Assembly: GCA_027039465.1 (NCBI GenBank)
Contig: JALWEA010000263.1
Location: forward strand, 1-39,999
DNA length: 39,999 bases
Reading direction: 5' to 3'
Origin: Calditrichia bacterium
GTDB taxonomy: Bacteria > Calditrichota > Calditrichia > Calditrichales > Calditrichaceae
Shown: positions 8,835 through 33,785 of the stretch, one piece after another
How positions within the stretch are numbered: position 1 is the first letter of the stretch
Layout of the letters: each line of letters begins with the position of its first letter
The notes under the pieces: model-generated
What the model was told of the DNA's origin: nothing
Seen by the model: the letters and a program-made list of their open reading frames with translations, nothing else
The model's database searches: none
Made by a program: the position numbers and the translations under genes

Positions 8835-8859
8835 ATCCATTAAAGTAAAAGGAGAAGTT

Positions 8860-13077: not shown

Positions 13078-13089
13078 GGCCATGTTATG

Positions 13090-13118
13090 AGAGCAGAAGC
13101 ATTGTCTTCTGCTCTTTT
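13090..13118 (+). terminator. Hairpin with short U-tract after the 1405-aa gene (partial terminator or mRNA-stabilising stem)
   Basis: agagcagaag-cattgt-cttctgctct followed by ttt. Confidence 0.65.
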
Positions 13119-13148
13119 CCACAATTATCCGTTAATAAGGAATATGGA

Positions 13149-13805: not shown

Positions 13806-14831
13806 ATGGAAAAGTCCTTTGTTACCTTTGGTGAAATCATGCTACGTTTGGCTCCTTTTAATAAAGAACGTTTCGTGCAAGCCGGTATTTTTCAAGCGAC
13901 TTATGGCGGTGGTGAGGCCAATGTGGCGGTTTCGCTGGCTCTTTTGGGGAATAAAGCGCGGTTTGTAACACGCTTGCCGGATAATCCGCTCGGGCAGGCC
14001 GCTTTGAATTATTTGCGCGGCTTTGGCGTAGACACAACTATGATCGTTAGAGGCGGGCCGCGTTTGGGCATTTATTTTTTGGAGCATGGCGCTTCCATCC
14101 GCCCTTCAAAAGTGGTGTATGACCGTGCGCATTCATCCATGGCGGAAGTACAACCGCAGGATTTTGATTGGGAGGTCATCTTCGGCGATGCCCATTGGTT
14201 TCACATTACGGGCATTACGCCCGCTTTGAGCCCTGTGTTAGCGGAGATTAGTCTGACGGCTGTGCAAAAAGCCAAAGAGAAAGGGCTGACGGTTAGTTGC
14301 GATCTGAACTACCGCAAAAAACTGTGGACGCGTAAGCAAGCAAATAAAGTTATGAGCAAACTGGTGCAATTTACGGATTTGATTATCGCCAACGAAGAAG
14401 ACGCTGCCGACATTTTCGGCATCGAAGCGGAAACAACCGATGTTACTTCAGGACATTTGGATGCGGAACATTACAAATCGGTGGCGCGGCAGCTTAAAGA
14501 AACAGGCAAAGCGGGAATGGTTGCCATTACGCTGCGCGAGAGCCTTTCCGCGTCCGATAATAATTGGTCGGCCATGTTGTACGACGGGCGGGAATTTTTC
14601 TTCAGCCGCAAATATGCCATTCATTTGGTGGATCGCGTGGGCGGCGGGGACAGTTTCGGCGCCGGATTGATTCACGGTTTAAATAAATTTTCGGACAAAC
14701 AAAAAGCATTGGAGTTTGCCGTGGCTGCTTCCGCATTGAAACAAACCATTCCGGGAGATTTTAATTTGGTCACGGAGGACGAGGTTCTGAATATTGTTAA
14801 AGGCGATTTATCCGGACGGGTGCAACGTTAA
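13806..14831 (+). CDS. kdgK: 2-keto-3-deoxygluconate kinase (PfkB family)
   Basis: TFGEIMLRL, GGGEANVA, DLNYRKKLW and VDRVGGGDSF motifs; the ATG directly follows the eda stop codon. Confidence 0.92.
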   Translation: MEKSFVTFGEIMLRLAPFNKERFVQAGIFQATYGGGEANVAVSLALLGNKARFVTRLPDNPLGQAALNYLRGFGVDTTMIVRGGPRLGIYFLEHGASIRPSKVVYDRAHSSMAEVQPQDFDWEVIFGDAHWFHITGITPALSPVLAEISLTAVQKAKEKGLTVSCDLNYRKKLWTRKQANKVMSKLVQFTDLIIANEEDAADIFGIEAETTDVTSGHLDAEHYKSVARQLKETGKAGMVAITLRESLSASDNNWSAMLYDGREFFFSRKYAIHLVDRVGGGDSFGAGLIHGLNKFSDKQKALEFAVAASALKQTIPGDFNLVTEDEVLNIVKGDLSGRVQR

Positions 14832-14840
14832 CGGGTTGGA

Positions 14841-17132
14841 ATGATTTCCATGATTTCTAAAAATCGAAATAAATATTTAGTAACGATTTTAATTGCCTTT
14901 CTCTTGGGGACATTGGGTGCCGCGGGAGCCGTCTTTGCCAAGGCAACGCCCAGGGACGATTTTTTCAAGCGTTTTTCTCTTCCCGATAACCGTTCTATTT
15001 TGCAGAATTTGATTCCGGCCAACGATACATTGAAATCCGTTAGGGCGCTTCCCGTGCAAAAGGCAATGCCGGAATTAATGCGCTATTTAAAACAAAAAGC
15101 GGCCACGCGCTATTATTTTAATTGGCGGAATTTCCGGGCACGGATTCAGGCCTATTTCAATACCTTCCCGCAGGAGAAACAGCGAACGCTGCGTTTGGCC
15201 CGCGAGATGATGGAACGTTTTCCGGCAAGTCCGGCATGGCAATTGCCTATGAAAGATCGCCACGGTCAACTTATTACGGCCTATCAATTCCGTCATTTAG
15301 CCAGGCAAAGTAAATTGCCGCAAGTGGTTTTAAGCTATTATCTGCAAAACAAAGAACAAGCCTATTTAAATTATTTTTTGAGTCAGGTGCGAAGTTTAAA
15401 CAAGGCGTTTCAGAACGGTAAAGTGGAAGAGGGCGGCAATGCCGTTTACGAAGTCTTCCGTGCCGGGAAACGGATGCACCACTGGCTTTTTGCGCATTTT
15501 GCTTTTCTATCCGATAAAAATTACACCTGGCAAGATCAGTTGTTATTATTGCGTACTTTTTTACACCATGGCGCTATTTTATTCGCGGAAACAAAAAAAT
15601 ATCATCCTGGCAACCACCAAACACGAGGCCTGGTAGCGCTTTTTGAAATTTCGGCTCTGTTTCCGGAATTTAAACCGTGCATCCAGTGGCGCAGGCATGC
15701 TCTTAATCTGTTACTTGAGCACATTAAAAATGAAGTCAATGCCGACGGCTTTCAGTTCGAGCGCAGCGAACATTATCACAAAGGCGATATTGAGAATTAT
15801 TTGCGGGTCTACCAACTTGCGAAATTGAATCATATTGTTTTGCCTGCGGAATTTGAAGAAAAATTTAAAGCCATGTTCAACGCCCTTGCCCAATTGGCTC
15901 TTCCCGATGGAAATTTACCGGTTCTGCAAGACGACACGGATGGGGGCTCGGATGTGGAAGCCGATTTAAAGGAGCCCATGGCCGTGGGCGCGATGGTGTT
16001 TTCCGACGGTTTGTTTCGCTACTTTGCAGGGGAAAAGTGGCCGCAAAGTTTTTATTGGTTGTTAACAAATAAACAGTTGCAAGAATTCAAAGCGTTGCCG
16101 AAACAAGCGCCAAAATACGGCTCATTGGCTTTGAGGCAAACCGGTTACTACGTGATGCGCGACGGCTGGGACAAGCAAAGCAATTACATGATTATTTCCG
16201 CCGGGTTGGAAAAGCGCAAACCGGATCATCAGCACGGGGACATGTTGGGCATAATCGGTTTCTCCCACGATACGATGGTTTTACCGAATTACAAAGTGCA
16301 TTACAATCATCCGGATTATTCGTACCTGAAGAATTCATGGGCGAAAAACGTGGCCTTGGTCGATAGCCAGACCCAGGGACGTGACTGGTTGGCAAATCGA
16401 GGCGGATCGGGATTCGGGAAGTGGAAAATTCTACCGGAGCCAAAGGTAATGTGCTGGCAAAGCGGTGATTCCATGGACTATTTTTTGGGCTCGCATAACG
16501 GCTTTTGGAATTTAGGCGTGCGTTATTTTCGGGACGTGCTGTTTGTCAAACGTCATTTTGGGCTGGTTGTCGATCGATTTCTGACTAACGGCAGGCATAT
16601 TTATCAACAGGTTTGGCAAGGGAAGTTTAAGAGAGTAAATGCTCGGCACCTGAGCCGAACATTGAAAGATGGCACAGAATTCCATCTCATTCAGTTGCGC
16701 AACGATGCCTTCACGGTTAACCGGCACCTTTTCGGCGAACATCAAAATAACGTCTTTCAAATTCCGGCTTCGGGTAATTACGATTTTATTACTTTGATTT
16801 TTCCCGGAGAATTGGTACAAAGAGGCGGTTCCGTTTTTGCAAGCAAAAGATTTACTTTCGAACAGGCAACGGAATGGAGTCCGTCGGCCAAGGTACAGTT
16901 TAAGTTGCAAGCTTTAATTCGAAAAAAACAGCAGCCTTATTTGTTGATCGGAGTCAACGCCATTCGTTCGGATAAGCAAGTTTTTTCTTTTACACAACCG
17001 ATTCATTTGCTGATCGTAAACAAACAGTCTCATAAACTGACATTGCGTTTTTACGGCAGCAAGCAATCGGCTTTTGAGTTTAACACGACTAAACCGCCCG
17101 CGTGCGGCGGACTCGTGCAGATTAAAATTTAA
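14841..17132 (+). CDS. Heparinase II/III-like polysaccharide lyase with signal peptide; PL family uncertain (PL12/PL39-like fold)
   Basis: GNHQTRG, DGFQFERSEHYH, GYYVMRDGW and DHQHGD motifs are typical of alpha-toroid plus beta-sandwich lyases. The start may be 14841 or 14850. Confidence 0.72.
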   Translation: MISMISKNRNKYLVTILIAFLLGTLGAAGAVFAKATPRDDFFKRFSLPDNRSILQNLIPANDTLKSVRALPVQKAMPELMRYLKQKAATRYYFNWRNFRARIQAYFNTFPQEKQRTLRLAREMMERFPASPAWQLPMKDRHGQLITAYQFRHLARQSKLPQVVLSYYLQNKEQAYLNYFLSQVRSLNKAFQNGKVEEGGNAVYEVFRAGKRMHHWLFAHFAFLSDKNYTWQDQLLLLRTFLHHGAILFAETKKYHPGNHQTRGLVALFEISALFPEFKPCIQWRRHALNLLLEHIKNEVNADGFQFERSEHYHKGDIENYLRVYQLAKLNHIVLPAEFEEKFKAMFNALAQLALPDGNLPVLQDDTDGGSDVEADLKEPMAVGAMVFSDGLFRYFAGEKWPQSFYWLLTNKQLQEFKALPKQAPKYGSLALRQTGYYVMRDGWDKQSNYMIISAGLEKRKPDHQHGDMLGIIGFSHDTMVLPNYKVHYNHPDYSYLKNSWAKNVALVDSQTQGRDWLANRGGSGFGKWKILPEPKVMCWQSGDSMDYFLGSHNGFWNLGVRYFRDVLFVKRHFGLVVDRFLTNGRHIYQQVWQGKFKRVNARHLSRTLKDGTEFHLIQLRNDAFTVNRHLFGEHQNNVFQIPASGNYDFITLIFPGELVQRGGSVFASKRFTFEQATEWSPSAKVQFKLQALIRKKQQPYLLIGVNAIRSDKQVFSFTQPIHLLIVNKQSHKLTLRFYGSKQSAFEFNTTKPPACGGLVQIKI

Positions 17133-17167: not shown

Positions 17168-19996
17168 GTGAAAATTGGGATTCGATTCACGTTGTTACTG
17201 GCGGTAATACTGTTCGTTTTAAAACCGGGTTTTGCCGGAAATACGGGAAAGTTAGCCGGTATCATCACCGACGCCGAAACCGGCAAACCCTTGCCGGGCG
17301 CTAATATTGTGATTTCGGCCCGCTGGGAAAACGGGCAGGAAATTCCCTTACGTGTGCCGGCCGGTGCCGCCAGCGGTTTGGACGGTAGTTACTACATTTT
17401 GAATTTACGGCCGGGCTTTTACACCATTGAAATAAGTTACATCGGTTACCGTCCGAAAAAATTTACCAAGGTGGCCATTACGGTGGATAAAACCACGCGT
17501 TTGGACGTGGCTTTGCAAAGCGAAGTGTACAAGGGCGAAACCATTCAAGTGGTAGCCTATCGTCCTTCGCAAGTGGAAAAGGATTTAACGGCCACCAAAC
17601 AAGTGTACAATGTGGAAGATGTTCAGTCCATTGCCGGTGTTGCCAATTTGAATGACATTTTGCAATTACAGGCCGATGTGGTGGATGACCACTTTCGGGG
17701 CGGGCGCGTTGGCGAGGCTTCCTATTTGTTCGGCGGCGGACTGATCGTTAATCCGTTAAACAACCGACGTGCGTTTAGTCCCATTGTAACCGCTTTGGAA
17801 CAGGTAGAAGTTTACACCAGCGGTTTCAGTGCCGAATACGGGAATGCACAATCCGGGGTTGTGAATATGGTACCCAAAGAAGGGGGCAGCCGTTGGCAAA
17901 GCCGTTTGGAAGTGGCAAGTACGTTACCCTATTACAAAACCTGGCAGGGAAATCCCTACGATCCCAAAAATTTGTATTTCAATGCGTTGCTTTCTCATCT
18001 GGACGAATGGATGAAAGAAAATCCCAACAATCCCGGTAAACCGTTGTATGATTTGGGCTATGGTTTCGGGCCGACTTATTTGCCCGTACGTATTGTTTGG
18101 CCGCCGGTTTTTTACACCCGTGACGATTCGCTTAAAATAGCCGGCTTGGGCCAAATGGCCTATTTTCAGGCTTTCCGGGAAATCGGAATGGCAACGCCAA
18201 AAGCCATGGATACGCGTCTCGATTTTACGACCGGCGGGCCGTTAACGGAACACTCGACCATTTTTATGGCCGCACGGCAAACCACTTCCGCGCCCATTGT
18301 ACCCATGCCGAATCCGCAAACGGATCGACAAATGTTGGTAAACTGGGCGTATCGTCCTCATGCCACGGATAAAGTAAATCTGACCTTTTTAATCAATTTA
18401 AGTAATACCTACACGTTGAGTAATTTTTTGCGTTACATGTTCGATCGCTCCATGAATGCCTTGTACAATCAATCTTTAACGCGGCAATACGGCGTAAAAT
18501 GGAATCATGTTTATTCGCCGTCTACCTTCTCTAACATTCAGTTAAATATTTTGGATATCAGCAATAAGCAGCGCATCGAGTTGGTGCGACCAGGAGAGTT
18601 TTACGAACAATATTCCAACGGAACCAATTGGACAAACTACACGGCGCCTTCCAATCACCGGATCGGACAACCTTCGGATGATTTCGGAAATCAGAATACA
18701 CGCACGTACAGTCTTAAGGCCAATATGAGCAGTCAGCTTAATAAGTTCAATTTGGTCAAAACAGGCTTGCAGTTTTACTACTACGATGTCGATGTGAACA
18801 TGGATATGAATATTACCACCAAAGGCAACTACCGCAAGGTTAAGTTTAATGCCTTCCCGTATGAAGGCGCTTTATTCTTGCAGGACAAAATGGAATTTGC
18901 CGGTATGATTGCCAATTTGGGTTTGCGATTCGATTTTTATCAACTGAATACGAGTTATTACGGCGATCGATATTCACCTTTGCGGGAACCGAATTTTAAA
19001 ATCCGCACCAAACTTTACAGTCGTTTGCAACCCAGAATCGGCATTTCCTTTCCGGTGTCCGAACGGGCGGTATTTCATTTGAATTACGGTACTTTTACCC
19101 AACGCCCGAATTTCAATCAGTTGTTTTACAATCAGATTACGCTTAACAAAGATGTGGATGTGTTGGGTAATCCGGACTTGAAACCTGAAACAACCAACGC
19201 TTACGATGTGGGTTTGGTTTACGGCTTGCCTTTGGGATTTCGTTTGGATGTGAGCGCCTATTACAAAGATGTTAAAAACTTGGTGGAAAGCGCCTATTAC
19301 AAAGACAAGAATTTCGAAGAATACCGCACCTACATCAATCGCGACTACGCGGATATCAAAGGATTTCATGTGAATCTGGAAAAAATCGGGCGCGGATGGC
19401 AGGGCTACATTCGCTACAATTACGAATCGGCCAAGGGAAAGAGCAGTAACGATTTGAACGCGCCGGTTATCTATTTCGAAACGCCTGATCCCACTTACGG
19501 ACACGTAAAATTACCCAAGCCGGAAGATGTGTATCTGGATTACGATCGCACGCACAAGCTGTTGTTGAATGTTCGTTACACCACGCCCGAAAAATTCGGG
19601 CCTGGCATTTTGGGGCAGCATCCTTTCGGAGCGTTTACGATCAGCAATACCTATCGTCTGATGACCGGTCGGCCTTACACCTGGGATGAAAGCGGTCAGG
19701 GGCTACGGTACAACAAGCGCACACCCACCGAACATGATTGGAGAATGCGCCTGCAAAAGAAATTCCGTTTCGGCGGAACACGCATGACCTGGTATTTGGA
19801 AGGCTTCAATTTACTCAACGAAAAAGTGTACAACTATTCCAGAACATTTAACGACGAACGGGAAACCGCCCGTTGGGAGCAGGGACAAAATGTTTTGATT
19901 TACAACGAATACGCGCCTTACACTACGAGTCAGGCTATTTACCTTTTAAGCAACCAACCGCGTCATTATCGGATGGGCGTAATTTTTGAATTTTAA
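17168..19996 (+). CDS. TonB-dependent receptor with an N-terminal carboxypeptidase-regulatory-like domain (not SusC type)
   Basis: GGAGG RBS with GTG start; GKLAGIITDAETGKPLPGANI; plug motifs HFRGGR and SGFSAEYGNAQSGVVN; barrel motifs LQPRIGISFPVS and GNPDLKPE; terminal Phe. Confidence 0.9.
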   Translation: MKIGIRFTLLLAVILFVLKPGFAGNTGKLAGIITDAETGKPLPGANIVISARWENGQEIPLRVPAGAASGLDGSYYILNLRPGFYTIEISYIGYRPKKFTKVAITVDKTTRLDVALQSEVYKGETIQVVAYRPSQVEKDLTATKQVYNVEDVQSIAGVANLNDILQLQADVVDDHFRGGRVGEASYLFGGGLIVNPLNNRRAFSPIVTALEQVEVYTSGFSAEYGNAQSGVVNMVPKEGGSRWQSRLEVASTLPYYKTWQGNPYDPKNLYFNALLSHLDEWMKENPNNPGKPLYDLGYGFGPTYLPVRIVWPPVFYTRDDSLKIAGLGQMAYFQAFREIGMATPKAMDTRLDFTTGGPLTEHSTIFMAARQTTSAPIVPMPNPQTDRQMLVNWAYRPHATDKVNLTFLINLSNTYTLSNFLRYMFDRSMNALYNQSLTRQYGVKWNHVYSPSTFSNIQLNILDISNKQRIELVRPGEFYEQYSNGTNWTNYTAPSNHRIGQPSDDFGNQNTRTYSLKANMSSQLNKFNLVKTGLQFYYYDVDVNMDMNITTKGNYRKVKFNAFPYEGALFLQDKMEFAGMIANLGLRFDFYQLNTSYYGDRYSPLREPNFKIRTKLYSRLQPRIGISFPVSERAVFHLNYGTFTQRPNFNQLFYNQITLNKDVDVLGNPDLKPETTNAYDVGLVYGLPLGFRLDVSAYYKDVKNLVESAYYKDKNFEEYRTYINRDYADIKGFHVNLEKIGRGWQGYIRYNYESAKGKSSNDLNAPVIYFETPDPTYGHVKLPKPEDVYLDYDRTHKLLLNVRYTTPEKFGPGILGQHPFGAFTISNTYRLMTGRPYTWDESGQGLRYNKRTPTEHDWRMRLQKKFRFGGTRMTWYLEGFNLLNEKVYNYSRTFNDERETARWEQGQNVLIYNEYAPYTTSQAIYLLSNQPRHYRMGVIFEF

Positions 19997-20012
19997 AAAG
20001 TCGGGGTGAACA

Positions 20013-22235
20013 ATGACAGGAAAGATGGTAAACACAATAATCTTAATTTTGCTTGGCTTTTCGTTAAGTCAGGCTCAATTGGAGTATCGCATTCATAACC
20101 GCGGCATGTTGCAGGAAACCGAATTTAACGACGGCACCATCGGCCGCCCGTGGCAAACGGGTGAGGCCGGTAACCGGGCAACGACTCCGGTCATGGAATG
20201 GCCTCCCTATTCGGCAGCTATCGTTAAAGGAATTGAATACAGCGGGCAACACAATATTTTAGGCGCCGGGATGTACATGGCAGCCAATTTGGACGGTAAA
20301 CCGGGAAAAGACAATCGAATTTATGCGTTGTGCGGCGGGGTAGGAGCCAGCTCGCCGGAAAAGGTGGTCGGTGTGTGGAGTTTTCCTATTTCCATGGAAG
20401 AAATCGACAACTATCCCGTTTTGCCGAACGGCGATTTGAATCCCGATTATAATCCGGACGAAGCGGAACAGATTATTATTGCCAAATGGGCAACACCGCT
20501 TGGAGTTACGGTAACACGTACTTCACGTCAATGGAGCTATCCCGATTACGATGATTTCATTATTTACGAATATGAGCTGGATTACAACGGAGACACCGAC
20601 GGCGATCCTTCCACCATTGAACAAACCACGACTTTAAAAGATTTTATGGCGTTGTTTATTTACGGATTTGCGCCGTCCATGTACGGTTACCAGCGGGTTT
20701 ATCAAACCTGGAAATATAATGGCGGAATTTACCGCGGTGATCAGAATACGTTTTGGGATGCGGATTATTGGTTGGCATTTAATCTGGATTTGCGCACCAA
20801 TTTGCGGGACGAATGGGCCAAACCGGAACCGGATTTCGATCTGTTTAAATATCAGGCGGAAACCGGCTATTTGGGCGGGGGCTTGTTAAGTCCGCAGGCG
20901 CCCGGTTATTGCATCCTGTATTACGATACCACGCATCTGGCCATTGTCGATCCGAATAATCCGCAACGCAACGAATCGGAGGCGGTGAACATTTTGCGTA
21001 CGGTGGCCGGTGAATATTTTGAAATCGATGAACACGGGCACATCAAGCAGCCCTGGTCCAATAAAGTAAGTACGGGCAATACCCGCAGTTCCAAGATGAA
21101 AGACATGTCCATTAATCCAGACAATCGCTGGAGCGGAGTTTACAGCGAAGGCAGTACCACCTGGCCTGAAGTACCCAGCCCGCGTTGGTACGGTCGGGCG
21201 GCTTTTAATTATCGGCAAAGCGTGGATGCCGGACAAAAACACACGGTGTTCGGGCCGTACACTTTGCACCACGGTGACAAATTGTATTATTCCATTGCCG
21301 AAGTCATTGGTTACGGAGCGCAGGCCGGCAAGCGCGTGGAAGGCGGTCCGGCTGTAAACGGCGTTTTGCATCAATGGAACCGACTGCCGTCCTGGGATCG
21401 TCCGGTAGTATTTAACGGCAAAAAATACACCGAGATGGGTTACCTGACCGAATACGGATATCCGGACTATGTTAATTCTTCGGTGCACAATGTGCAACAG
21501 GTGGCGGAAAAAGCCTTTGAAGCTTACCTGGGCCACAAACCGACGATACCGGTTTGGCCGGAGGATAATCCTCGTCATGGTGTTTATACCATTCCCATTC
21601 CGCCTCCGGCACCGGCCATTACCATCGAAAATACGCCCAAAGCCGAAGTGCGCATTCAATGGGGTCCGCAAGTTGAAAAATTCGATGTACCTCGCCTGAC
21701 CGATAAAGTGGATCATTACAATGTCTACCGAAGTGTGATGGGCATGGGACCCTGGAAGTTGCTGGCTTCCATTCCCGTGGGCAAAATGCAAGGCGATCAT
21801 TACGAATTTTTGGATACGGATCAAAAGTTCAAAATCGGGGAAACGCGTTACTATGCCGTAACCTCGGTTGATGCCAACGGTAACGAAAGCGGTAAAACCA
21901 ATTTAACCAAACATCAAAAAAACGTCGGCTCCGTGGAAAAGTTGAGCAAAGTTTATGTGGTGCCGAATCCGTTTGTTTTGCGTTCCGGCTATACGGGCAG
22001 CGGCGAAGTGGCCAAGAAAATCGGTTTTTACAAATTGCCTCGCCGTTGCACCATTCGCATTTTTTCCTATGCCGGGCAATTGGTGCAAACCATTGAACAC
22101 AACGATCCGATCTATTCCACCGAATGGTTTCAAATGACGCGCAACGGACAGGACATTGCCTCGGGGATTTATTTTTACGTGGTTACCACGCCTGGCGGCG
22201 ATCAAACCAGCGGTAAATTTATTGTGATCAAATAA
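20013..22235 (+). CDS. Secreted aromatic-rich hypothetical protein with an FN3-like domain and a variant C-terminal sorting domain
   Basis: Signal peptide; FN3-like segment IQW...YNVYRS...YYAVTSVD.NGNES; C-terminus VYVVPNPF...IRIFSYAGQLV...IASGIYFYVV...KFIVIK. Confidence 0.75.
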   Translation: MTGKMVNTIILILLGFSLSQAQLEYRIHNRGMLQETEFNDGTIGRPWQTGEAGNRATTPVMEWPPYSAAIVKGIEYSGQHNILGAGMYMAANLDGKPGKDNRIYALCGGVGASSPEKVVGVWSFPISMEEIDNYPVLPNGDLNPDYNPDEAEQIIIAKWATPLGVTVTRTSRQWSYPDYDDFIIYEYELDYNGDTDGDPSTIEQTTTLKDFMALFIYGFAPSMYGYQRVYQTWKYNGGIYRGDQNTFWDADYWLAFNLDLRTNLRDEWAKPEPDFDLFKYQAETGYLGGGLLSPQAPGYCILYYDTTHLAIVDPNNPQRNESEAVNILRTVAGEYFEIDEHGHIKQPWSNKVSTGNTRSSKMKDMSINPDNRWSGVYSEGSTTWPEVPSPRWYGRAAFNYRQSVDAGQKHTVFGPYTLHHGDKLYYSIAEVIGYGAQAGKRVEGGPAVNGVLHQWNRLPSWDRPVVFNGKKYTEMGYLTEYGYPDYVNSSVHNVQQVAEKAFEAYLGHKPTIPVWPEDNPRHGVYTIPIPPPAPAITIENTPKAEVRIQWGPQVEKFDVPRLTDKVDHYNVYRSVMGMGPWKLLASIPVGKMQGDHYEFLDTDQKFKIGETRYYAVTSVDANGNESGKTNLTKHQKNVGSVEKLSKVYVVPNPFVLRSGYTGSGEVAKKIGFYKLPRRCTIRIFSYAGQLVQTIEHNDPIYSTEWFQMTRNGQDIASGIYFYVVTTPGGDQTSGKFIVIK

Positions 22236-22253
22236 AGGAGTTGGAGAAATAAA

Positions 22254-23252
22254 ATGAAAATACGGACTATTGTTTTATGGGCATTACTGGCCGTCTCGCC
22301 CTTGCTGGCCTTCGAAAAAGTCGGTACAACATCTTTCCAATTTCTGAAGGTGGTGGCCGATGCCCGTTCCATGAGTATGGCCGGGGCTTACACGGCCGTA
22401 GTAGATCGCTCCGATGCCGTTTTCTGGAATCCGGCGGCGCTGACGCGTACGGAAAGTCCGGATATAAGTTTTTCATACATGAATTACTTTCTTGACGTAA
22501 AGCATGTTTCGGCTTCGGCTTGCATTCCGCTGGGTGTTTCCGGCACGCTCGGTTTCCAGTTTATGATGGCGGATTACGGAAAAATCGACGTTACCCGAGT
22601 TGATGCATTGGGCTTTGTAAACGGAGAATACAATCCGGGGCTAACCGGAGAGACCATTAATCCTTATGCGGTGGTGGCGGGCGTTTCGTATGCCAAACGT
22701 CTGACGCAAAAATTCTCTTTCGGATTAACGGCCAAATTGGCCAGAGAAGATATGGATTTTACCAGTCCGTATGCCAAAAATCAAAAAAATTACGAAGTGG
22801 CCCATAATGCTTTGATGTTCGACGCCGGTTTGTTGTACAACACGGGTTTTCGTTCCATCCGTATTTCGGCCACGGTACGGCATTTCGGGCCGGATGTCAA
22901 ATATATCGATCAATCCTATCCTTTGCCGCAGATGATGAATATCGGGGTATCGGCCAATCTGTTTGCAGACGATCAGGCTCTGTTCTTTCATACCGGCCAT
23001 CAACGATTGTTGTTCGCATTTGATTTGGTGCAGGCCAGAGATTACGGCCAACAATATAATGTGGGAATGGAATATTCGTTTCGGAATATAATCTTTCTGC
23101 GCGGCGGATATCGTATTAATTACGATACCGAAGGATTGGCTTTGGGATTCGGTTTGCATTTTAAAGATTATCGAATCGATTATGCATTTAATGATTTCGG
23201 CTCGTTTTTGGGCCATGTTCACCGTTTTTCGATTGGCATTAATTTGAAATAG
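22254..23252 (+). CDS. PorV/PorQ-family outer-membrane beta-barrel
   Basis: Signal peptide followed by FQFLKV...ARSMSMAGAY.AV......VFWNPA, the PorV/FadL-type N-terminal signature; amphipathic strands ending in HRFSIGINL. Confidence 0.8.
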   Translation: MKIRTIVLWALLAVSPLLAFEKVGTTSFQFLKVVADARSMSMAGAYTAVVDRSDAVFWNPAALTRTESPDISFSYMNYFLDVKHVSASACIPLGVSGTLGFQFMMADYGKIDVTRVDALGFVNGEYNPGLTGETINPYAVVAGVSYAKRLTQKFSFGLTAKLAREDMDFTSPYAKNQKNYEVAHNALMFDAGLLYNTGFRSIRISATVRHFGPDVKYIDQSYPLPQMMNIGVSANLFADDQALFFHTGHQRLLFAFDLVQARDYGQQYNVGMEYSFRNIIFLRGGYRINYDTEGLALGFGLHFKDYRIDYAFNDFGSFLGHVHRFSIGINLK

Positions 23253-23266
23253 TTTGGAGTAAAACG

Positions 23267-24763
23267 ATGAAAAAATCCACAATAATGATTTTTTACCTAA
23301 TGGTTTTCGGAACCGCAACTCTGTTTGCCCAGCACCGCGGCGATCTGTTTTCGTTTCAGGGATTGGATGAGACGGTTGACGGAGGGGCGCAATCCATGGC
23401 CATGGGCGGGGCCTGGACGGCCATGAGCGGTCGCCTGGACAACCTATTCCATAATTCCGCCGGATTGGCTTTGATAAAAAAGTGGACAGTGTCGGTCAGC
23501 GGGAATTATTACAAAAAAGATTGGTGGGAAAATCAGGCTTACCGGCCGGATCGTTATTTTGTTACCCTGCCTTTCTATCTGGAAGGAATGTACGTACCTG
23601 ATCCAAAGAACAACGGGGTTCTGGATCGTGATCTGGCATTGGATTCAAGTTATGTGGTACATCCGCCCAAAGACGGCGGCAAGCGCGTGGATAGCAAGGA
23701 AGCGGCAGATTGGACGCGCCAAAAATCAGCGCCCGTTTTTAACAATATCGCTTTGGCTGTTCCGTTACATTTACTGGGACGGGATTTGGTGCTGGCGGCT
23801 TCTTATCAGCAAAAGTTAAATTTTTTGGATTTTGATCGAGACGACACCTATTTGGTGCCCATGCTCGGCACCAGCCTTTATCAGGGCTTTGTGGCGCGCA
23901 TGAACGGCAACGATACACTTAATCTGAAATGGTTCCAATATCAAAGGGAACGCACAGGCTCCCTGCATTCGGTGCACGGCGCTTTGGCCGTTAAGGTAAC
24001 CAAACAACTGAGTTTGGGACTTGCCTTGGATTACACATTTGGCACGAGCACGGATGAGCTCCGGCTTATTAAAAAAGGATATTTCGGTCTGATCGATGAA
24101 AATAAATTCTTTTTTACCTTCGATACTCTGAATCATTTGGAAAACGGGAACTCCGATTTTAAAACCTTAAACAGCGCAATTGGTTTGCAATACCGGTTTG
24201 AGCATGTAACGATTGGTATCAATGTTAATTTACCAAGAACCATTACACGCAACTGGCATTACACCGTAAGCGAGCAAACGGCAAATTCCGTTAGCAATAA
24301 AAAAACGTCAGGGCAAGACCGCCTTGAAATTCCGGCCTCGTATCGCTTTGGTTTGGTTTTCAAACCGATAAAAGCCTTTACCTTTTCGCTCGCGTATGGC
24401 TTTGCGCCTTATAATCAAAGCAAAGTTACATTGGGACAAGCCGATAGTACCTTTCAAAAATGGCCCGATCAACACGCATTGATGGGCGGCCTACGTTACC
24501 AAGCTACCGATTTTTTGGCATTAATGGCCGGTTATCGTTGGAAAACCGCATTATTTGGACCGGATGGTGTTGGCTTTAGAGACCGTGGCCCTGATCAAAC
24601 AAGCATTTCATTTGGCAGTCAATTTTCGTTCGGTTCTTTGGGCAGCGTTATTCTTGCTTTTGAAACCAAATCGATGAATTACCATGACACCTATTTTAGC
24701 AATACCAATTATGCGACCGAAAAAATGCAAAATTTTATCATACAATATGTTTATCAATTTTAA
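23267..24763 (+). CDS. FadL/OmpP1-like outer-membrane beta-barrel
   Basis: Signal peptide; GAQSMAMGGA.TA......LFHNSAGLA hatch motif; alternating beta-strands; C-terminal YVYQF. Confidence 0.7.
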   Translation: MKKSTIMIFYLMVFGTATLFAQHRGDLFSFQGLDETVDGGAQSMAMGGAWTAMSGRLDNLFHNSAGLALIKKWTVSVSGNYYKKDWWENQAYRPDRYFVTLPFYLEGMYVPDPKNNGVLDRDLALDSSYVVHPPKDGGKRVDSKEAADWTRQKSAPVFNNIALAVPLHLLGRDLVLAASYQQKLNFLDFDRDDTYLVPMLGTSLYQGFVARMNGNDTLNLKWFQYQRERTGSLHSVHGALAVKVTKQLSLGLALDYTFGTSTDELRLIKKGYFGLIDENKFFFTFDTLNHLENGNSDFKTLNSAIGLQYRFEHVTIGINVNLPRTITRNWHYTVSEQTANSVSNKKTSGQDRLEIPASYRFGLVFKPIKAFTFSLAYGFAPYNQSKVTLGQADSTFQKWPDQHALMGGLRYQATDFLALMAGYRWKTALFGPDGVGFRDRGPDQTSISFGSQFSFGSLGSVILAFETKSMNYHDTYFSNTNYATEKMQNFIIQYVYQF

Positions 24764-24776
24764 ATAGGAGGAAAGC

Positions 24777-26411
24777 ATGAGACGCATTATTTACCTTGCA
24801 ATGGCACTGATGGTGATTTTTACCGGTGTGCCGAAATTATGGGCCTCGCATATTGATGTGACCGATCAATATGATCTTAAAATGGCCCTTGATTACGCCG
24901 CAACCGCCAATATCGATACGATCTTCCTGACAACCTCGGGTGGAGTTTATACGACGACCGATACCATGGCCTTGTCGGTTCTGGAACCGTTGGTTATGAT
25001 GGCGGCGCCTGGTTTGGCTGAAATGCCGATTTTAACCAACAGCGATCCGAATCAAAAGGTATTGGATATTTTGCGCATTTATGCGGATTTTACCGTGGAA
25101 GGCGTTATTTTTGACGGCGGAAACGATGTAAGCCACGGCATGAAGTATGCGCTGCGCTGCGACAACGATCCGACGCGAGGCTACACCGTTGATCCGGATG
25201 CGGATATTACGGTGAAAAATTGCATCTTCCGCAATTTCTATCAGGATAAAGATCCTACCAAAGACGGACATGTGTTCAAAGTGGCCAAGGTAAAAGTCGG
25301 TACGGTGCGTTTTGAGAATTGTTTGATCGATGGCACGGGCTACGAGGCCATTCGACTTTCCGACACGGAAAAATGGAAAACCACCAAAACATGCGATTCT
25401 TTGATTGTGGAGAACTGCACTTTTACGCGCTGCAATGCCGAAGGTATTCGTTTTTATGCCGACAAAGATACTTCCACAGCCGACGCTTACGTGCTCTTGC
25501 AACATTTGACTTTTTACAATACCGCTACGCGTGTCATGTTCATAAAGAACAACCAAAACACCATCGTTCGGGATATTATCGTTGCCAATTCGCGGCTCTC
25601 CACACACGGACGGGATGATTTTATCATGCAAGTGCAGCAGAAGGGTTCTACCATCAGTAATGTGGATACCTTCCAAGTGACTACATTAGACGGAACGTAC
25701 GACAGAGATAAGTTAATTTATGTGGCAAAGAACGGCGGAAAGGGTACGGATAAGAGCACCATTTGGGGATTCGATCCCAAATTCAAAGATCCGACCAATT
25801 TGGATTTGACCTTGATGCCGACCTCTCATGCCTATTTTGCCGGACATGACGGCAGCGCACTTGGCGATTTAAACTGGGCAAAGGAAACGCCGACGGTTAT
25901 TCCTTTTAGTTATGAAATTCAAGGAAAAGGGCAGTTGCAATTTGATCCGCCATTACAGGGACGCAGTTATGATCCGAACACAACGGTAACGGTCACGGCT
26001 GTCCCGGATTCCGGCTGGCAATTTAAAGAGTGGCAAGGGGATTTGACCGGAACGGATAATCCGGCTTCCATTACGGTGGATGCGGCCAAACACATTACCG
26101 CCGTTTTTGAACAGGCTACTGCCATCGGAGACGGGCAAATGGTGGTTCGCTCTTTTGCCTTGCAGCAAAACTATCCAAACCCGTTTAATCCGCAAACCAC
26201 CATTCAATATTCCATTCCGCAAAACAGTTATGTGCAATTAACCGTTTATGATCGCAACGGCCGTATTGTGCAAACACTAGTAAATTCGATTCAACAAGCC
26301 GGTACTTATCGCGTTCGTTTCGCGCCGAAAAATTTAGCCACCGGTGTTTATTTTTATCGCTTGACCGACGGCGTACACCATGCGGTGCATAAAATGTTGT
26401 TCATTAAGTAA
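24777..26411 (+). CDS. Secreted beta-helix (DUF5123-like) protein with a B-type repeat and T9SS-like CTD; paralog of the C-terminal third of the 1405-aa protein
   Basis: AGGAGG RBS. It shares TNSDP, GMKY, DGH.FK, GYEAIR.SDTEKW, DSLIV.NCTFT and RDII.ANSRLS with 11539-12543; CTD LQQNYPNPFNP...LATGVYFYRL. Confidence 0.85.
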   Translation: MRRIIYLAMALMVIFTGVPKLWASHIDVTDQYDLKMALDYAATANIDTIFLTTSGGVYTTTDTMALSVLEPLVMMAAPGLAEMPILTNSDPNQKVLDILRIYADFTVEGVIFDGGNDVSHGMKYALRCDNDPTRGYTVDPDADITVKNCIFRNFYQDKDPTKDGHVFKVAKVKVGTVRFENCLIDGTGYEAIRLSDTEKWKTTKTCDSLIVENCTFTRCNAEGIRFYADKDTSTADAYVLLQHLTFYNTATRVMFIKNNQNTIVRDIIVANSRLSTHGRDDFIMQVQQKGSTISNVDTFQVTTLDGTYDRDKLIYVAKNGGKGTDKSTIWGFDPKFKDPTNLDLTLMPTSHAYFAGHDGSALGDLNWAKETPTVIPFSYEIQGKGQLQFDPPLQGRSYDPNTTVTVTAVPDSGWQFKEWQGDLTGTDNPASITVDAAKHITAVFEQATAIGDGQMVVRSFALQQNYPNPFNPQTTIQYSIPQNSYVQLTVYDRNGRIVQTLVNSIQQAGTYRVRFAPKNLATGVYFYRLTDGVHHAVHKMLFIK

Positions 26412-26517: not shown

Positions 26518-29232
26518 ATGCGGAGATTAGGAGTAACATTGAAATCAATCATTCTTTTCCTCATTTTTAGTTGGACTTTGGTAGCGCAGGCGGAAACGAT
26601 TCTTGTTAAAAATGCACAAGAGATCAGTGACCATCTCGGTCAGTTACTTCCGGGCGATACGTTAATCATGCGGGATGGCTATTGGAAAAACCAGCGTATC
26701 GAATTCAAAGGGCAGGGTACTCCTGAAAATCCCATTGTACTTAGAGCACAAACGCCTGGTCAGGTCTGGATTACCGGGAAGTCTAATTTACGCATCGGCG
26801 GGCAGTACGTGGTTGTGGACGGAGTTTATTTTGTCAACGGTTACAGCCCGGACGGCGGGGTGATTGAATTTCGCGACGCTTCCAAGCATGCGGCCAATCA
26901 TTGTCGCCTAACCAATTCGGCCATTGTGGATTTTAATCCGCCCAGCAAAAGCACCGATTACAAATGGGTTTCCTTGTACGGCCAATACAATCGTGTCGAT
27001 CACTGTTATTTTGCCGGGAAAAATCATCAAGGTACCACATTGGTCATTTGGATGTCAACAACGCCTAATTACCATCGCATCGATCACAATCATTTCGGGC
27101 CAAGACCGGAATTGGGTTCCAACGGCGGTGAAACCATTCGCATCGGCACCAGTGATTATTCAATGTACGACTCTTATGCAACGGTTGAATGGAATTATTT
27201 TGAACATTGCGACGGCGAGATCGAGATTATTTCCAATAAGTCCTGCAAAAATACTTACCGTTATAACACATTTGAATCATGCAAGGGAACGTTGACCTTA
27301 AGACACGGGAACGCTTGCAGTGTGTACGCCAATTTCTTTTTCGGAAACAATTCGGATCACACCGGGGGCGTACGCATTATCGGAGAGGATCATCGTGTTT
27401 ACAATAATTATTTTCAGGATTTGCAAGGGACGGATTATCGGGCAGCCATTTCCATGATGAACGGTGTTCCGAATTCGCCGCTTAATAGGTATTTTCAGGT
27501 AAAGCGGGCAAAAGTACTGTTTAATACCATTGTGAATTGTTATGAACCTTTGGTGATTGGCGCCGGAGCCGATGACGAAAAAACGCTTCCACCCAAAGAT
27601 TGTATTATTGCCAATAATGCGATTCTCTCACCGTATAATCACCCGATTGTTACGTTTGTTTCTCAGCCGGAAAATATGACGTGGGAAGGTAATATTTTTT
27701 ACGGACCGGATCCTGGTTTTGAAAACATTACGGGAATTACAGTGCAAGATCCCTTGTTGCAACTTTCTGCCGACGGATTGTATCGCCCGAAGGAAAGCAG
27801 TCCTTTAATCGGTGCATCGCAGGACACATTTTCCTTTGTCACTATGGATATGGACGGGCAGGTCCGTACGGATCCCAAAGATGTCGGGGCCGATCAAATC
27901 AGTACCGACTCCGTGACGGTTTATCCCTTGAAAGCGGGCGATGTCGGCCCGAGCTGGTACCCTCCGCAATCACCTCCTGTCCCGGTTGTTCAGGTTCGGG
28001 AAGGGAGGGATTCCTTGCAAGCGGCCATGGAAAAAGCGGATGACGGGGATATTATCGAGTTAATTAGCGACGGCGGCGTGTACAGCTTAAGCGCACCCGT
28101 TTCCATTGATAAAAATATTACCATTCGTACTAAAACCGGTTTGGCACAATCTCCGAGTATTGTACCTGCAACGGGAATCGACACCTTGAACGCTTTATTT
28201 CGCTGGACGAATGCACGACAATTACGCCTGCAAAATCTGATTGTAGACGGGCAAAACAAGGTAAGAAACATTTTTGAGAATGGAATAAAACATGTGGCTT
28301 TACAGTGTGATTCCGTTACAATCTTTAATACGGGCTTCGATTCAAGCGGTGCGATCTTTTTTGCCTTCGCAGGGAGTTTAATTGACACGATGCAATTTGA
28401 AAATTGCTCTTTTTTTCATGGGCGCGGACACGGATTAGTGGCCAACGGCGAGGCGCAGGGCAGCGGGCTTTACAACATCGGTGTTCTTAAGTTGGAAAAT
28501 TGTACGGCTTGGGACTATGCGCAATCGTTTTTGGATGTTTACGGCGGCGATGACATTCCTTTTACTCCTTGCCCTCAAATTTCCGTTAACCATTGCACCT
28601 TCCATGCCTGTGCTATTGATGGCGGCGCTGTAATCGATGCGGATCAGGTGGATTTTACCTGGATTAAAAATTCGATTTTCAGCCAGAGCAGTCCCGAGCA
28701 AGCAGCTCTGAAAATATATGGTCAGGCAGCTTCGGTGGACTACTGTGATTTTTACGCTTCCGGTTCCGTTGAGTTGTTTCGCGAAGCACAAAAAGGTAAT
28801 CATATTTATCAACTTGATCCGTTATTCAAAGATGCCGATCAAGGGGACTTTGGGTTGCAGCAGAATTCTCCGCTTTGGGCCAAAGCGGATGACGGTACGG
28901 CGCTTGGCGATTTGCGCTGGACCGGGCAAGTTATGGCTATTGGTGACAGGTCGTTTACGTCCGTTGCCGAACGGTGGAAGATATTAAGCAACTATCCCAA
29001 TCCGTTTAACGGTCAAACAACCATAGGATTCGTAAGCCCGTTTACGGGAATGGTGCATTGGCAGGTTTTTAATCTTCGGGGGCGTCGCATAACGCAAGGC
29101 CGTTTTTCCGTACAAAAAGGTCAGCTTTTACATTGGAACTGGGATGCCGGAAATTTGGCTTCGGGAATTTATTACTTGACGGTGGAAGGCAAATCGGAAC
29201 GGTTTGTAACTAAAATGATTTTAGTGAGGTGA
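26518..29232 (+). CDS. PL6 alginate lyase (chondroitinase B-type beta-helix) plus a second beta-helix module and a T9SS-like CTD
   Basis: PL6 motifs NGGETIRIG, GEIEIISNKS (catalytic Lys), LTLRHG (catalytic Arg) and GGVRIIGEDH. The second module ends DDGTALGDLRW and the CTD reads NYPNPFN...LASGIYYL. An alternative start is TTG 26539. Confidence 0.9.
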   Translation: MRRLGVTLKSIILFLIFSWTLVAQAETILVKNAQEISDHLGQLLPGDTLIMRDGYWKNQRIEFKGQGTPENPIVLRAQTPGQVWITGKSNLRIGGQYVVVDGVYFVNGYSPDGGVIEFRDASKHAANHCRLTNSAIVDFNPPSKSTDYKWVSLYGQYNRVDHCYFAGKNHQGTTLVIWMSTTPNYHRIDHNHFGPRPELGSNGGETIRIGTSDYSMYDSYATVEWNYFEHCDGEIEIISNKSCKNTYRYNTFESCKGTLTLRHGNACSVYANFFFGNNSDHTGGVRIIGEDHRVYNNYFQDLQGTDYRAAISMMNGVPNSPLNRYFQVKRAKVLFNTIVNCYEPLVIGAGADDEKTLPPKDCIIANNAILSPYNHPIVTFVSQPENMTWEGNIFYGPDPGFENITGITVQDPLLQLSADGLYRPKESSPLIGASQDTFSFVTMDMDGQVRTDPKDVGADQISTDSVTVYPLKAGDVGPSWYPPQSPPVPVVQVREGRDSLQAAMEKADDGDIIELISDGGVYSLSAPVSIDKNITIRTKTGLAQSPSIVPATGIDTLNALFRWTNARQLRLQNLIVDGQNKVRNIFENGIKHVALQCDSVTIFNTGFDSSGAIFFAFAGSLIDTMQFENCSFFHGRGHGLVANGEAQGSGLYNIGVLKLENCTAWDYAQSFLDVYGGDDIPFTPCPQISVNHCTFHACAIDGGAVIDADQVDFTWIKNSIFSQSSPEQAALKIYGQAASVDYCDFYASGSVELFREAQKGNHIYQLDPLFKDADQGDFGLQQNSPLWAKADDGTALGDLRWTGQVMAIGDRSFTSVAERWKILSNYPNPFNGQTTIGFVSPFTGMVHWQVFNLRGRRITQGRFSVQKGQLLHWNWDAGNLASGIYYLTVEGKSERFVTKMILVR

Positions 29233-29235
29233 GCA

Positions 29236-31158
29236 TTGAAGCATTTTGCATTCTTTCTAACGCTGGGCTTTGTCTTTTTTATTAATGCCATTGTTCAGGG
29301 GCAGGAAACATGGCAATCGAAAATTGTATTCTACAATGATGACGGTCATTTGCAGTACGTACGGGATTCGCTGGGAAATGTCATTCCTGATTTCAGTTAT
29401 GCCGGTTACAAAAACAGTGATGAACCTATTCCGGATGTTCCGGTTGTGCTTAGTATTGAACCCGTACAAGGTGACAATACCGCCCACATTCAGGCCGCCA
29501 TCGATTCCGTAGCAGCCATGGCACCGGATTCCAACGGATTTCGCGGAGCGCTTTTGCTTAAAGCGGGAATCTATCCTATTTGGGGAACAATTTACGTGGA
29601 TGAAAGCGGCATTGTGCTGCGCGGCGAAGGCGATGACGCAGATTCAACGCAAAACACGATTATTGTGGCCAAAGGGAATAGTCCCAAGCAGAGAACCGTA
29701 CTTGTGGCCGGAGGTAATGACGAAACAAAATGGCGCGATATGGTGCCGGGAACCAAATCGTACATTACGGACGATACCGTTTTGGTCGGTTCAAGAACTT
29801 TTCATGTACAAAAACCGAGTTATTATCATGTAGGTGATAACATCATTATTTTCCATCCCTGCACGGATGAATGGCTTCAGGCTATTGATTACGGGGGCAC
29901 GCATTCCAACGACCCGGACGCAGAGCCAGGCGTTGATGTTCCCTGGGAGGTAGGCAGCCAACCCATTGTGTACAACAGATATATTAAAAAAATAGAAGGT
30001 GACGAAATTACCATTGATGCGCCTCTTTACAATCATTTTATTAAAGCGCAGGCCAAATCTTATGTGTACAAATATTTGCGTCATAAACTTAAAACCAATA
30101 TCGGCATCGAAAATTTGCGTATTGATATTGAAACAGTGGGCGGTACCAATGAAAACCATGCCTGGAACGGCATTGATCTGTTTTTGATTGAAGATGCCTG
30201 GGTGCGGAATTGTACGGTTTTGCATTTCGGCGAATCGGGTTTTCGGACACATACGGCAACCCGTGTTACTATAGAAAATTGCAAAGCTTTGGATCCGGTA
30301 TCCAAAATAACCGGCGGACGGCGTTACAATTTTGAAGCTTATACCGCTTCTCAGCAAATTTTGGTTAAAGAATGTTTGGCGACCAACGGTCGGCACCATT
30401 ACATGTCCAACGGAACTTCCTGGGCTAGTGATATTGTATTTTTGAATTGCAAATCATCGGGGGCGTATGCTTCCAGCGAAGGACATCGGCGTTGGTCACA
30501 AGGGTTGCTTTACGACAACCACAAGGAATTGGACGGTCCTCGGCCCGGTTACAATCCGCGATTGTTGGGTTTGTATTGCCGTGGCTACTACGGCACCAGT
30601 CACGGATGGGCCGCTGTTCATTCGGTGGCCTGGAATTGCGATGTGGCGCAGGGTGATTTGATTGTGCAGAAACCGCCCACAGCTCAAAATTACGCCATTG
30701 GTTGCAAAGGAAAACGCATTACCGGCAAAAAACCGCCGGCTTCTTTTGACGAGCCTGAGGGTTACATTGAAGGAAGTAATAAAGACGGACTCTATCCGCA
30801 ATCATTGTTTCTGGCACAGTTAACCGAGCGACATAATGCAACGGGTATTAGGAATGATAATCGCAAAATGGCGTTACCCAAAACAATCCGTCTGGTTCGT
30901 GCTTATCCCAATCCGTTTAATCAGCAATTGACCTTTCGATTCGATATAAGCAGCAGCGAACGCGTGCAGTTGCGTATTTTTGATATTGCGGGAAGGCTGA
31001 TTTATACGCGGAATTTCGGTTTGCTATCCGGCGGCAGTCATGTTTACCATTGGGGCGGAAAAGATTCGTCCGGATTGGATGTGGGAAGCGGTATTTACTT
31101 TTTGCAATTATCCGTTGCTGCGCAAAAAGAGACGGTTCGCGTTTTATTGATCAAATAA
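29236..31158 (+). CDS. Secreted pectin-lyase-fold (beta-helix) protein of unassigned family with an FlgD/T9SS-like CTD
   Basis: TTG start after GAGGTG; signal peptide; IPDFSYAGY, GDNTAHIQAAID, SGIVLRGEG and GIENLRI motifs; CTD AYPNPFN...WGGKD..G..VGSGIYFL. Confidence 0.75.
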   Translation: MKHFAFFLTLGFVFFINAIVQGQETWQSKIVFYNDDGHLQYVRDSLGNVIPDFSYAGYKNSDEPIPDVPVVLSIEPVQGDNTAHIQAAIDSVAAMAPDSNGFRGALLLKAGIYPIWGTIYVDESGIVLRGEGDDADSTQNTIIVAKGNSPKQRTVLVAGGNDETKWRDMVPGTKSYITDDTVLVGSRTFHVQKPSYYHVGDNIIIFHPCTDEWLQAIDYGGTHSNDPDAEPGVDVPWEVGSQPIVYNRYIKKIEGDEITIDAPLYNHFIKAQAKSYVYKYLRHKLKTNIGIENLRIDIETVGGTNENHAWNGIDLFLIEDAWVRNCTVLHFGESGFRTHTATRVTIENCKALDPVSKITGGRRYNFEAYTASQQILVKECLATNGRHHYMSNGTSWASDIVFLNCKSSGAYASSEGHRRWSQGLLYDNHKELDGPRPGYNPRLLGLYCRGYYGTSHGWAAVHSVAWNCDVAQGDLIVQKPPTAQNYAIGCKGKRITGKKPPASFDEPEGYIEGSNKDGLYPQSLFLAQLTERHNATGIRNDNRKMALPKTIRLVRAYPNPFNQQLTFRFDISSSERVQLRIFDIAGRLIYTRNFGLLSGGSHVYHWGGKDSSGLDVGSGIYFLQLSVAAQKETVRVLLIK

Positions 31159-31171
31159 AGAAGGAAATAGA

Positions 31172-32356: not shown

Positions 32357-32393
32357 TAATGTTGAATACGTTGAAGATGAAGGCATTCATTTA

Positions 32394-32461: not shown

Positions 32462-32507
32462 CGCAACGCTTTGCTTATTCTGTCTGTTGCAAATTTAGGA
32501 GATTTCC

Positions 32508-33767: not shown

Positions 33768-33785
33768 AAAGGATGATTGAAAATC

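Follow-up and report, generated by a model that had tools for sequence, protein, structure and literature searches.

How does a bacterium that degrades alginate bring the products through its outer membrane when no SusD is found in its genome? Polysaccharide harvest in the Bacteroidota is defined by SusC/SusD, and the question is raised by a locus of a Calditrichia bacterium on contig JALWEA010000263.1, of which a stretch of 39,999 nt, the window, was analysed (genome of 4.58 Mb in 681 contigs, 95% complete). Here four consecutive genes encode a TonB-dependent receptor, a 740-aa protein (X) that ends in a type IX secretion system (T9SS) sorting domain, a PorV/PorQ-family barrel and a FadL-like barrel. 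Together they are a conserved SusD-free cassette inside an alginate-degradation locus. An earlier note on this DNA had suggested that X is the substrate-binding lid of the receptor, held on the surface by a locus-specific PorV paralog instead of a lipid anchor. We find that the cassette is real and widely conserved. No description of it was found in the open literature, subscription papers and supplements being outside this coverage, and it is apparently undescribed in the literature searched. As to its mechanism, we lean somewhat towards the reading that the tail keeps X attached to a PorV/PorQ-family barrel of its own, in the manner of PorZ and PorQ, and that X supplies the receptor with oligoalginate.

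Results

Gene order is conserved across genomes and cassette types

Seventy-eight genome loci were gathered with an alignment of X. The receptor is the nearest upstream gene on the same strand in 77 of the 78, therefore chance is excluded; the PorV-like gene is next downstream of X in 71 of the 73 loci with downstream sequence, and the FadL-like gene comes next after it in 69 of 71. The exceptions are a receptor-free fusion (L053), a locus with assembly gaps (L066) and one with a 1.1-kb gap in which the open reading frame (ORF) filter kept an antisense frame (L018). Likewise, among 60 metagenome loci, partly redundant with the genome loci, the order is kept in 51/52 (receptor), 55/55 (PorV-like) and 43/44 (FadL-like). 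The loci are assigned to Calditrichota, Ignavibacteria, KSB1 and Neomarinimicrobiota/Fidelibacterota, some being labelled Bacteroidetes or Cytophagia, and a BLAST match to one of the four window lyases is present in 58 of the 78, many of which are cut by contig ends.

X finds matches in all 78 genomes of the phylum, mostly through its tail; among the matches listed, the alginate-type protein occurs in 15 genomes and a sister clade in five. X of the sister clade is 36-38% identical and retains the four-gene order, but its neighbours include glycoside hydrolase (GH) family GH28 in four of five loci, some with GH88, pectinesterase or PL9-type genes, and none of these in the fifth (22 selected neighbours scanned). 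This pectin clade alters 39-42 of the 93 invariant polar or aromatic residues of the X N-domain, mostly at the same positions, and the changes behave as a specificity site would be expected to.

The window genome itself holds nine contigs that each carry a receptor, a protein with an X-type tail and a PorV-family gene, and several more that are cut by contig ends. Seven of the nine triads are in the order receptor-X-PorV, one of them with a 150-aa insert (C147:7050-7502, an ORF between receptor and X that looks transposase-like by eye), and two have the barrel upstream. Their neighbours include GHL10, GH5/GH3, CBM20-type and peptidase genes, the bodies of the partners have no Pfam name, and only two partners are detectably related to the window X N-domain by hidden Markov model (HMM). 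The expectation of the earlier note that the triad recurs is thus borne out by a synteny survey, which places it beside different sets of carbohydrate-active enzyme (CAZyme) genes. Three triads (C325, C343, C643) are flanked by rotamase/SurA-like genes (L155:2-1384, L156:1-1359, L158:5481-7007).

Another member of the genus has a closed genome (G006), in which a PorV-family gene lies within 5 kb of 17/17 receptors of this clade versus 0/13 other receptors; 24 PorV-family genes exceed the cut-off, 16 of them beside clade receptors, and the three clade-receptor regions that were read out all have X-tailed genes. In some other cassettes the place of the FadL-like gene is taken by a pair of smaller genes without a name. 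One such type, a conserved one (L088-L091), consists of receptor, X-tailed protein, PorV-like barrel, unnamed proteins of ~275 aa and ~225 aa, and then genes for two or three cargo proteins with type A tails.

No SusD is found in the locus or the genome

No SusD family gave a Pfam match at E<=0.01 among the 23 window proteins scanned, and PF07980 and PF14322 had no match genome-wide (95% complete), the B. thetaiotaomicron control being positive. The receptor scores 39.7 bits against SusC/RagA TIGR04056 (cut-off 368.25), and no receptor of the genome is above that cut-off. A receptor and its partner stand adjacent in a CAZyme locus, as SusC and SusD do; the Sec signal peptide of X, by contrast, lacks a lipobox, the first 40 residues being free of Cys, X has no SusD Pfam match, and its model is mostly beta where SusD is built of tetratricopeptide repeats (TPR). 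A remote SusD was considered for X and rejected, as the AlphaFold2 (AF2) model, a confident one (pLDDT 90.5, pTM 0.90), matches beta-supersandwiches. On three counts, then, the earlier note had read the locus correctly from its letters: the search for SusD is empty in locus and whole genome, X carries no lipid anchor, and X does not have the SusD fold, being predicted instead as a beta-supersandwich followed by a fibronectin type III (FN3) domain and a PorZ-like tail. A survey of the phylum finds 1-3 SusD matches in 29 of 78 genomes (including G024, G029, G054, G055 and G057) and in 0 of 8 genomes of the window genome's genus.

X is predicted to carry a beta-supersandwich on an FN3 arm

X has 501 homologues that are family-named only at the tail, the best 120 of the 501 at 57-94% identity. 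Among solved structures no significant relative was found by sequence or profile search, and in the ESM Atlas X leads only to unnamed or tail-annotated clusters and its N-domain to no named match. In the model, mature residues 1-507 resemble the N-domains of GH15/65/94/116 enzymes, which are beta-supersandwiches: the best VIA match is 9ju0 (Z 19.6, rmsd 3.4, 264 aligned, 9% identity), and further ones are 1lf6 (Z 17.5) and 4zle (Z 17.4), N-domains of the GH15/GH94 type. In these enzymes a catalytic (alpha/alpha)6 barrel comes after the beta-supersandwich. In the X model only short helices follow the sandwich, then the FN3 domain (mature residues 508-617; VIA matches cover model residues 506-622) and the tail, and the barrel has no counterpart.

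The receptor has a signal peptide, a carboxypeptidase-regulatory-like (Ig-like) N-terminal domain, a plug and a predicted 22-strand barrel, and belongs to a non-SusC clade. In its AF2 model (pLDDT 84.7), from which the 22 strands were read, plug and barrel are those of a TonB-dependent transporter, and Foldseek returns classic members of that class, Cir at E 5e-26. Its first extracellular loop is a candidate docking site for X. A complex predicted from receptor mature residues 219-804 and X mature residues 1-414, both chains having been shortened to stay within 1000 residues, had scores of 0.19 and 0.07 where the mark is 0.32; obtained without controls, these values speak neither for nor against contact.

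Receptor and X N-domain diverge together

Do the parts of the cassette evolve as a unit? In the nine paralogous triads the divergence of X parallels that of the receptor (Mantel rho 0.77, p 0.0003). In 67 dereplicated orthologue sets, from 91 complete quartets plus the window, partial correlations are 0.80 for receptor core and X N-domain, 0.40 for X tail and PorV, and 0.60 for PorV and FadL. The X N-domain tracks the receptor plug, loop 1 and barrel (r 0.69-0.81; loop 1 at 0.80-0.81) versus r 0.28-0.31 for the periplasmic N-domain of the receptor, and the X tail follows the PorV-like and FadL-like barrels across the 67 sets. Cassette swapping was considered as the main cause and rejected, since FastTree trees of 49 rows for the receptor+X and the tail+PorV+FadL blocks look much alike on visual comparison, each having 10 label changes. 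The pattern agrees with receptor and sandwich working together, and likewise tail and barrels, but falls short of proof that they touch.

A second alginate-linked subclade (L069-L072, L075) has a receptor core and an X N-domain that diverged jointly. Both alginate versions are present in some genomes, as with L025 and L071, which share a contig; they may serve different blocks of alginate.

The tail of X is PorZ-like and its barrel is a locus-specific paralog

The only match over the X tail among the matches listed is PorZ 5m11 (mature residues 619-719; Z 11.0, rmsd 2.6, 86 aligned, 28% identity), and NF052228 matches it in part (E 1.5e-8). Against the type A family TIGR04183 the tail scores 24.1 bits (cut-off 23), with no PF18962 match, and forms a separable subtype; it scores below the type B cut-off (PF13585, CHU_C, 20.6 versus 27). 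An HMM built from the tails of X orthologues in other genomes divides the tails of the window genome into 18 of X type and 163 ordinary ones. A receptor adjoins 10/18 X-type tails versus 8/163 ordinary ones, and a PorV-family gene lies within 3 kb of 10/18 versus 7/163. The genome's PorZ is grouped with the X-type tails; PorU is not.

The genome encodes SprA, PorU, PorV, PorQ and a PorZ-like gene (256.8 bits, cut-off 260), and the housekeeping PorQ, PorZ, PorV and PorU genes are located elsewhere than the window locus. GldM and GldN gave no match in the window genome, and GldM was above cut-off in 0 of 56 genomes of the phylum, with two partial C-terminal matches; in both searches the positive control did not register. 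The T9SS here may be without the known motor.

The 332-aa barrel scores 188 bits against NF033709 (cut-off 90), and a profile search matches it to the solved PorV 6h3i_F (E 1.9e-15); against PorP/SprF TIGR03519 it reaches 35.6 bits (cut-off 90.55). It was rejected as the housekeeping PorV (NF033710, 67 bits versus 250; the gene on C124 scores 252.9) and as the housekeeping PorQ (NF033711, 90 bits versus 220; the gene on C49 scores 221.9). The locus-specific PorV paralog of the earlier note thus stands. That note had, as precedent for the anchoring, PorV binding the C-terminal domain (CTD) of T9SS cargo, and this part needs amending: given that the X tail is PorZ-like, the closest precedent is PorQ-PorZ and not PorV shuttling ordinary cargo. 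The tail of PorZ is uncleaved and anchored on PorQ (PMC10947112, PMC11285876).

The 498-aa barrel belongs to PF03349 (FadL/OMPP1). Its profile match is 9hiv_F (E 1.3e-6), which we take to be BamG, the entry itself being named only "outer membrane protein", and BamG family NF053685 gives it 51-56 bits (55.6) versus a cut-off of 250. As the genome's BamG it was rejected, since a gene on C231 scores best, with 157 bits, itself under that cut-off. In the loci examined no clade other than those of alginate and pectin had the FadL-like barrel, which is likely a scaffold beside the PorV-like barrel.

PorV-family genes occur in other settings of this genome too: one lies directly 3' of the gene for a 4721-aa protein (C114:2-15583), and near sprA a 492-aa tailed protein is accompanied by two tandem PorV-family genes (C61:2731-16983).

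The cassette lies within a run of alginate genes

The five + strand ORFs that the earlier note had placed here, of 942, 740, 332, 498 and 544 aa, are confirmed at its coordinates; the gaps between them are 16, 18, 14 and 13 nt, so that its range of 12-18 nt becomes 13-18 nt. The block is part of a run of genes on one strand that opens with a GntR regulator (3382) and closes with a GH88-GH2 fusion (37313). Scans for sigma-70 promoters and terminators were at chance (35 versus 33.4 and 28 versus 30.4).

Upstream of the receptor are genes for GntR, a short-chain dehydrogenase/reductase, an oligoalginate lyase-like protein (NF042990, 645 bits, under its cut-off of 1400), a major facilitator superfamily transporter, a cupin, a 1405-aa beta-helix CTD protein, KDPG aldolase, KDG kinase and a heparinase II/III-like lyase. 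Downstream of the block follow a PL6-type lyase (PF14592) with CTD, a 640-aa CTD protein, a PF05426 lyase, a DUF4861 protein and the GH88-GH2 fusion. We take these neighbours to be an alginate pathway, applying established knowledge to the profile matches. In 54 of 65 related loci the third gene downstream encodes a homologue of the 544-aa protein or of its paralog of 1405 aa, and most alginate cassettes are accompanied by homologues of one or both. The 1405-aa protein (8860-13077) contains several beta-helix/DUF5123 units homologous to the 544-aa protein. The protein at the contig start (39-1319) has three VanZ-like stretches, matches DUF2279 weakly and is unrelated to the cassette.

Table 1. 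Positions in the window of the cassette genes, their predicted domains and the flanking gene sets
Feature	Coordinates	Strand	Basis
TonB-dependent receptor, 942 aa	17168..19996	+	PF00593 (E 1e-22), PF13620, PF07715 weak
Receptor, helical first extracellular loop, ~95 aa; candidate X docking site	17924..18211	+	model secondary structure; divergence
Protein X, 740 aa	20013..22235	+	Sec signal peptide without lipobox; Pfam family only at tail
X, N-terminal beta-supersandwich (galactose-mutarotase-like fold) and linker; predicted glycan-binding module	20076..21596	+	AF2, VIA
X, fibronectin type III domain; predicted spacer arm	21597..21926	+	VIA Z 10.8-11.5, Foldseek
X, C-terminal T9SS sorting domain, PorZ-like subtype, ends GKFIVIK	21930..22232	+	VIA, NF052228, subtype HMM
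PorV/PorQ-family barrel, 332 aa, locus-specific paralog; predicted anchor of X tail	22254..23252	+	NF033709
FadL/BamG-like barrel, 498 aa, conserved large insertions	23267..24763	+	PF03349 (E 5.6e-9)
Beta-helix/DUF5123 protein, 544 aa, ordinary type A CTD; common but variable fifth gene	24777..26411	+	profile matches
Upstream alginate pathway genes	3382..17132	+	profile matches
Downstream secreted enzymes	26518..37313	+	profile matches

Discussion

A surface partner probably docked on its own barrel

How would such a cassette work? X would cross the inner membrane via Sec and the outer membrane via SprA. Its PorZ-like tail would escape cleavage by PorU and remain on the co-encoded barrel, which would hold it as PorQ holds PorZ, and the FN3 arm would position the beta-supersandwich above the receptor loops. 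The sandwich would bind oligomers freed by the CTD-bearing lyases of the locus for import by the receptor, periplasmic and cytoplasmic enzymes would complete alginate breakdown, and in the polyuronate versions the FadL-like barrel would act as an accessory scaffold. Anchoring on the barrel, which is common to this reading and to the first two of the alternatives discussed below, appears to be better supported than the lid role, for which X is presumed to bind alginate; the lid is the weaker half of the claim.

Several observations weigh against the docked lid. None of the four genes is as conserved as that of X (mean identity 62% versus 54% for the receptor), which would also suit an enzyme. 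In L053 (9908-14203) the X N-domain and FN3 are fused to a beta-helix, like that of the window 544-aa protein, and to an ordinary tail, with no upstream receptor; 91 of the 93 invariant residues are retained, so the N-domain can act outside the cassette, and a role of this kind would fit substrate binding or catalysis better than docking alone. SusD and the module coexist in some genomes of the phylum. As weak evidence, no fusion of receptor with X or PorV was found in a search among longer proteins (E<=1e-20), which gave one match for X (beta-helix/dockerin/CTD) and none for the PorV-like gene. In the nine paralogous triads the divergence of the tail is not matched by that of its PorV (rho 0.22, p 0.17), therefore strict private pairing is unsupported. 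Adjacent genes co-diverge anyway, and when 10 rows are dropped from the orthologue sets the partial correlations fall to 0.50 for receptor and X and 0.22 for tail and PorV, that of PorV and FadL still being ~0.6; the median differences go from 0.39 to 0.07 and from 0.13 to 0.06. Most of the co-divergence is explained by a rate shift in one divergent subclade.

The X N-domain also occurs with an ordinary type A tail in P0271 and P0148, of which P0271 resembles the L053 fusion by Pfam content (beta-helix/dockerin/CTD).

Alternative explanations

Could X be an enzyme? A surface-tethered member of a new family, whether alginate lyase, epimerase or hydrolase, would use its beta-supersandwich for catalysis and trim or modify chains near the receptor and not act as a lid. 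Mutarotase-like proteins (Z 11.0-11.8) and a GH174 fucanase chain (Z 12.4) are indeed among the weaker fold matches, H7, R9, E41, R374 and E409 (mature X numbering) persist across the alginate and pectin clades, and both the high conservation of X and the nearly complete set of invariant residues in the receptor-free fusion agree with catalysis. The top fold matches, however, are N-domains whose catalytic barrel is lacking in X, neither the family libraries nor the solved sequences hold a match for it, and unnamed X-tailed partners stand also beside GHL10, GH5/GH3 and CBM20-type genes, where a general transport partner fits better. We regard an enzyme as unlikely.

An alternative that we judge rather improbable is a glycan-binding protein, SusE/F-like or adhesin-like, that is anchored on the barrel and concentrates alginate without contacting the receptor, the linkage of the genes reflecting co-regulation. 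The X domain can occur without an adjacent receptor, the fusion search returned no receptor fusion, and in G006 one X-tailed gene (L166) is not adjacent to its receptor but lies ~4 kb upstream of it. What speaks against co-regulation alone is the near-invariant adjacency of receptor and X, and that the X N-domain diverges with the plug, loop 1 and barrel of the receptor and not with its periplasmic N-domain.

It is very unlikely that the PorV-like barrel and the FadL-like one assist only transiently in export or assembly, as a private shuttle at SprA or a BamG-like aid for the large-loop receptor, with X then released or attached to lipopolysaccharide: PorV is a shuttle that releases its cargo (PMC10994853), BamG, which the 498-aa protein weakly matches, is a FadL-family barrel of the BAM complex, the machinery for beta-barrel assembly (PMC12611786), and the X tail passes the type A cut-off, if narrowly, and does not co-diverge with PorV among paralogs, but a housekeeping PorV, a PorQ and a better BamG match exist elsewhere in the genome, the 163 ordinary cargo proteins are mostly without a private barrel, and the X tail groups with that of PorZ, which stays uncleaved (PMC11285876).

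A possible second kind of lidded importer

Returning to X as a lid docked on its own barrel, a wider claim can be made only tentatively. Calditrichota, Ignavibacteria, KSB1 and Marinisomatota/Fidelibacterota may possess a second general lidded importer parallel to SusC/SusD, with a T9SS-exported beta-supersandwich lid, an FN3 hinge and a private PorV/PorQ-family barrel, the polyuronate forms being three-barrel complexes with the FadL-like protein and the T9SS lacking a recognisable PorM/PorN motor. If true, the module would supply the outer-membrane uptake step that is missing in the neighbouring FCB lineages of sediments and vents, organisms with more than 100 T9SS-tailed proteins and few or no SusD genes. 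It would also offer a new marker for substrate prediction, the alginate and pectin clades differing at defined residues. PorV/PorQ barrels would have multiplied into private anchors, a test case for what makes a T9SS tail uncleaved; the features that separate cleaved from uncleaved tails are stated as undetermined in PMC11285876.

Comparison with known systems

A close counterpart among known systems is SusC/SusD (RagA/RagB) of the Bacteroidota. In both, a TonB-dependent receptor gene is followed by that of a dedicated secreted partner in the middle of a CAZyme locus, paralogous pairs are numerous per genome, and residues of the partner change with the neighbouring enzymes. Here, in contrast, the receptor is far under the SusC cut-off, the partner has neither lipobox nor SusD Pfam match and is a predicted beta-supersandwich in place of TPR, and the unit includes a third, PorV-family gene. 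The cassette likely works like SusC/SusD, yet stands outside that family. Polysaccharide utilization loci (PULs) are predicted in PULDB from susCD pairs (PMC5753385), therefore the cassette loci would not seed a PUL there. The same source notes susCD in Ignavibacteriae, and a true SusCDE operon is reported for Melioribacter roseus (PMC3534657), whereas the accessible text of the Caldithrix abyssi genome paper mentions TonB solely for uptake of B12 and thiamine (PMC5317091).

With regard to anchoring, the cassette resembles PorQ-PorZ in joining a PorV/PorQ-family barrel to cargo with a PorZ-like tail; it differs from that pair, and from PorV-PorU, in that the pair is multiplied and the body of the cargo is unrelated to PorZ. 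Type B cargo is held on the surface by a cognate, co-encoded PorP/SprF barrel (PMC9143113, PMC12618676), as in SprB-SprF and PG1035-PorP. Cargo and barrel are co-encoded here as well, but the barrel is of the PorV/PorQ family and the X tail is under the CHU_C cut-off, and the accessible text of PMC12618676 draws no link of type B cargo to TonB or SusC. BamG serves the Bacteroidota BAM complex as docking pillar for a surface protein (PMC12611786). The 498-aa protein is likewise a FadL-family barrel; it scores below the BamG cut-off, is not the genome's best match and travels with alginate and pectin cassettes. The design of the cassette is thus that of a receptor with a surface partner, built from parts of the T9SS.

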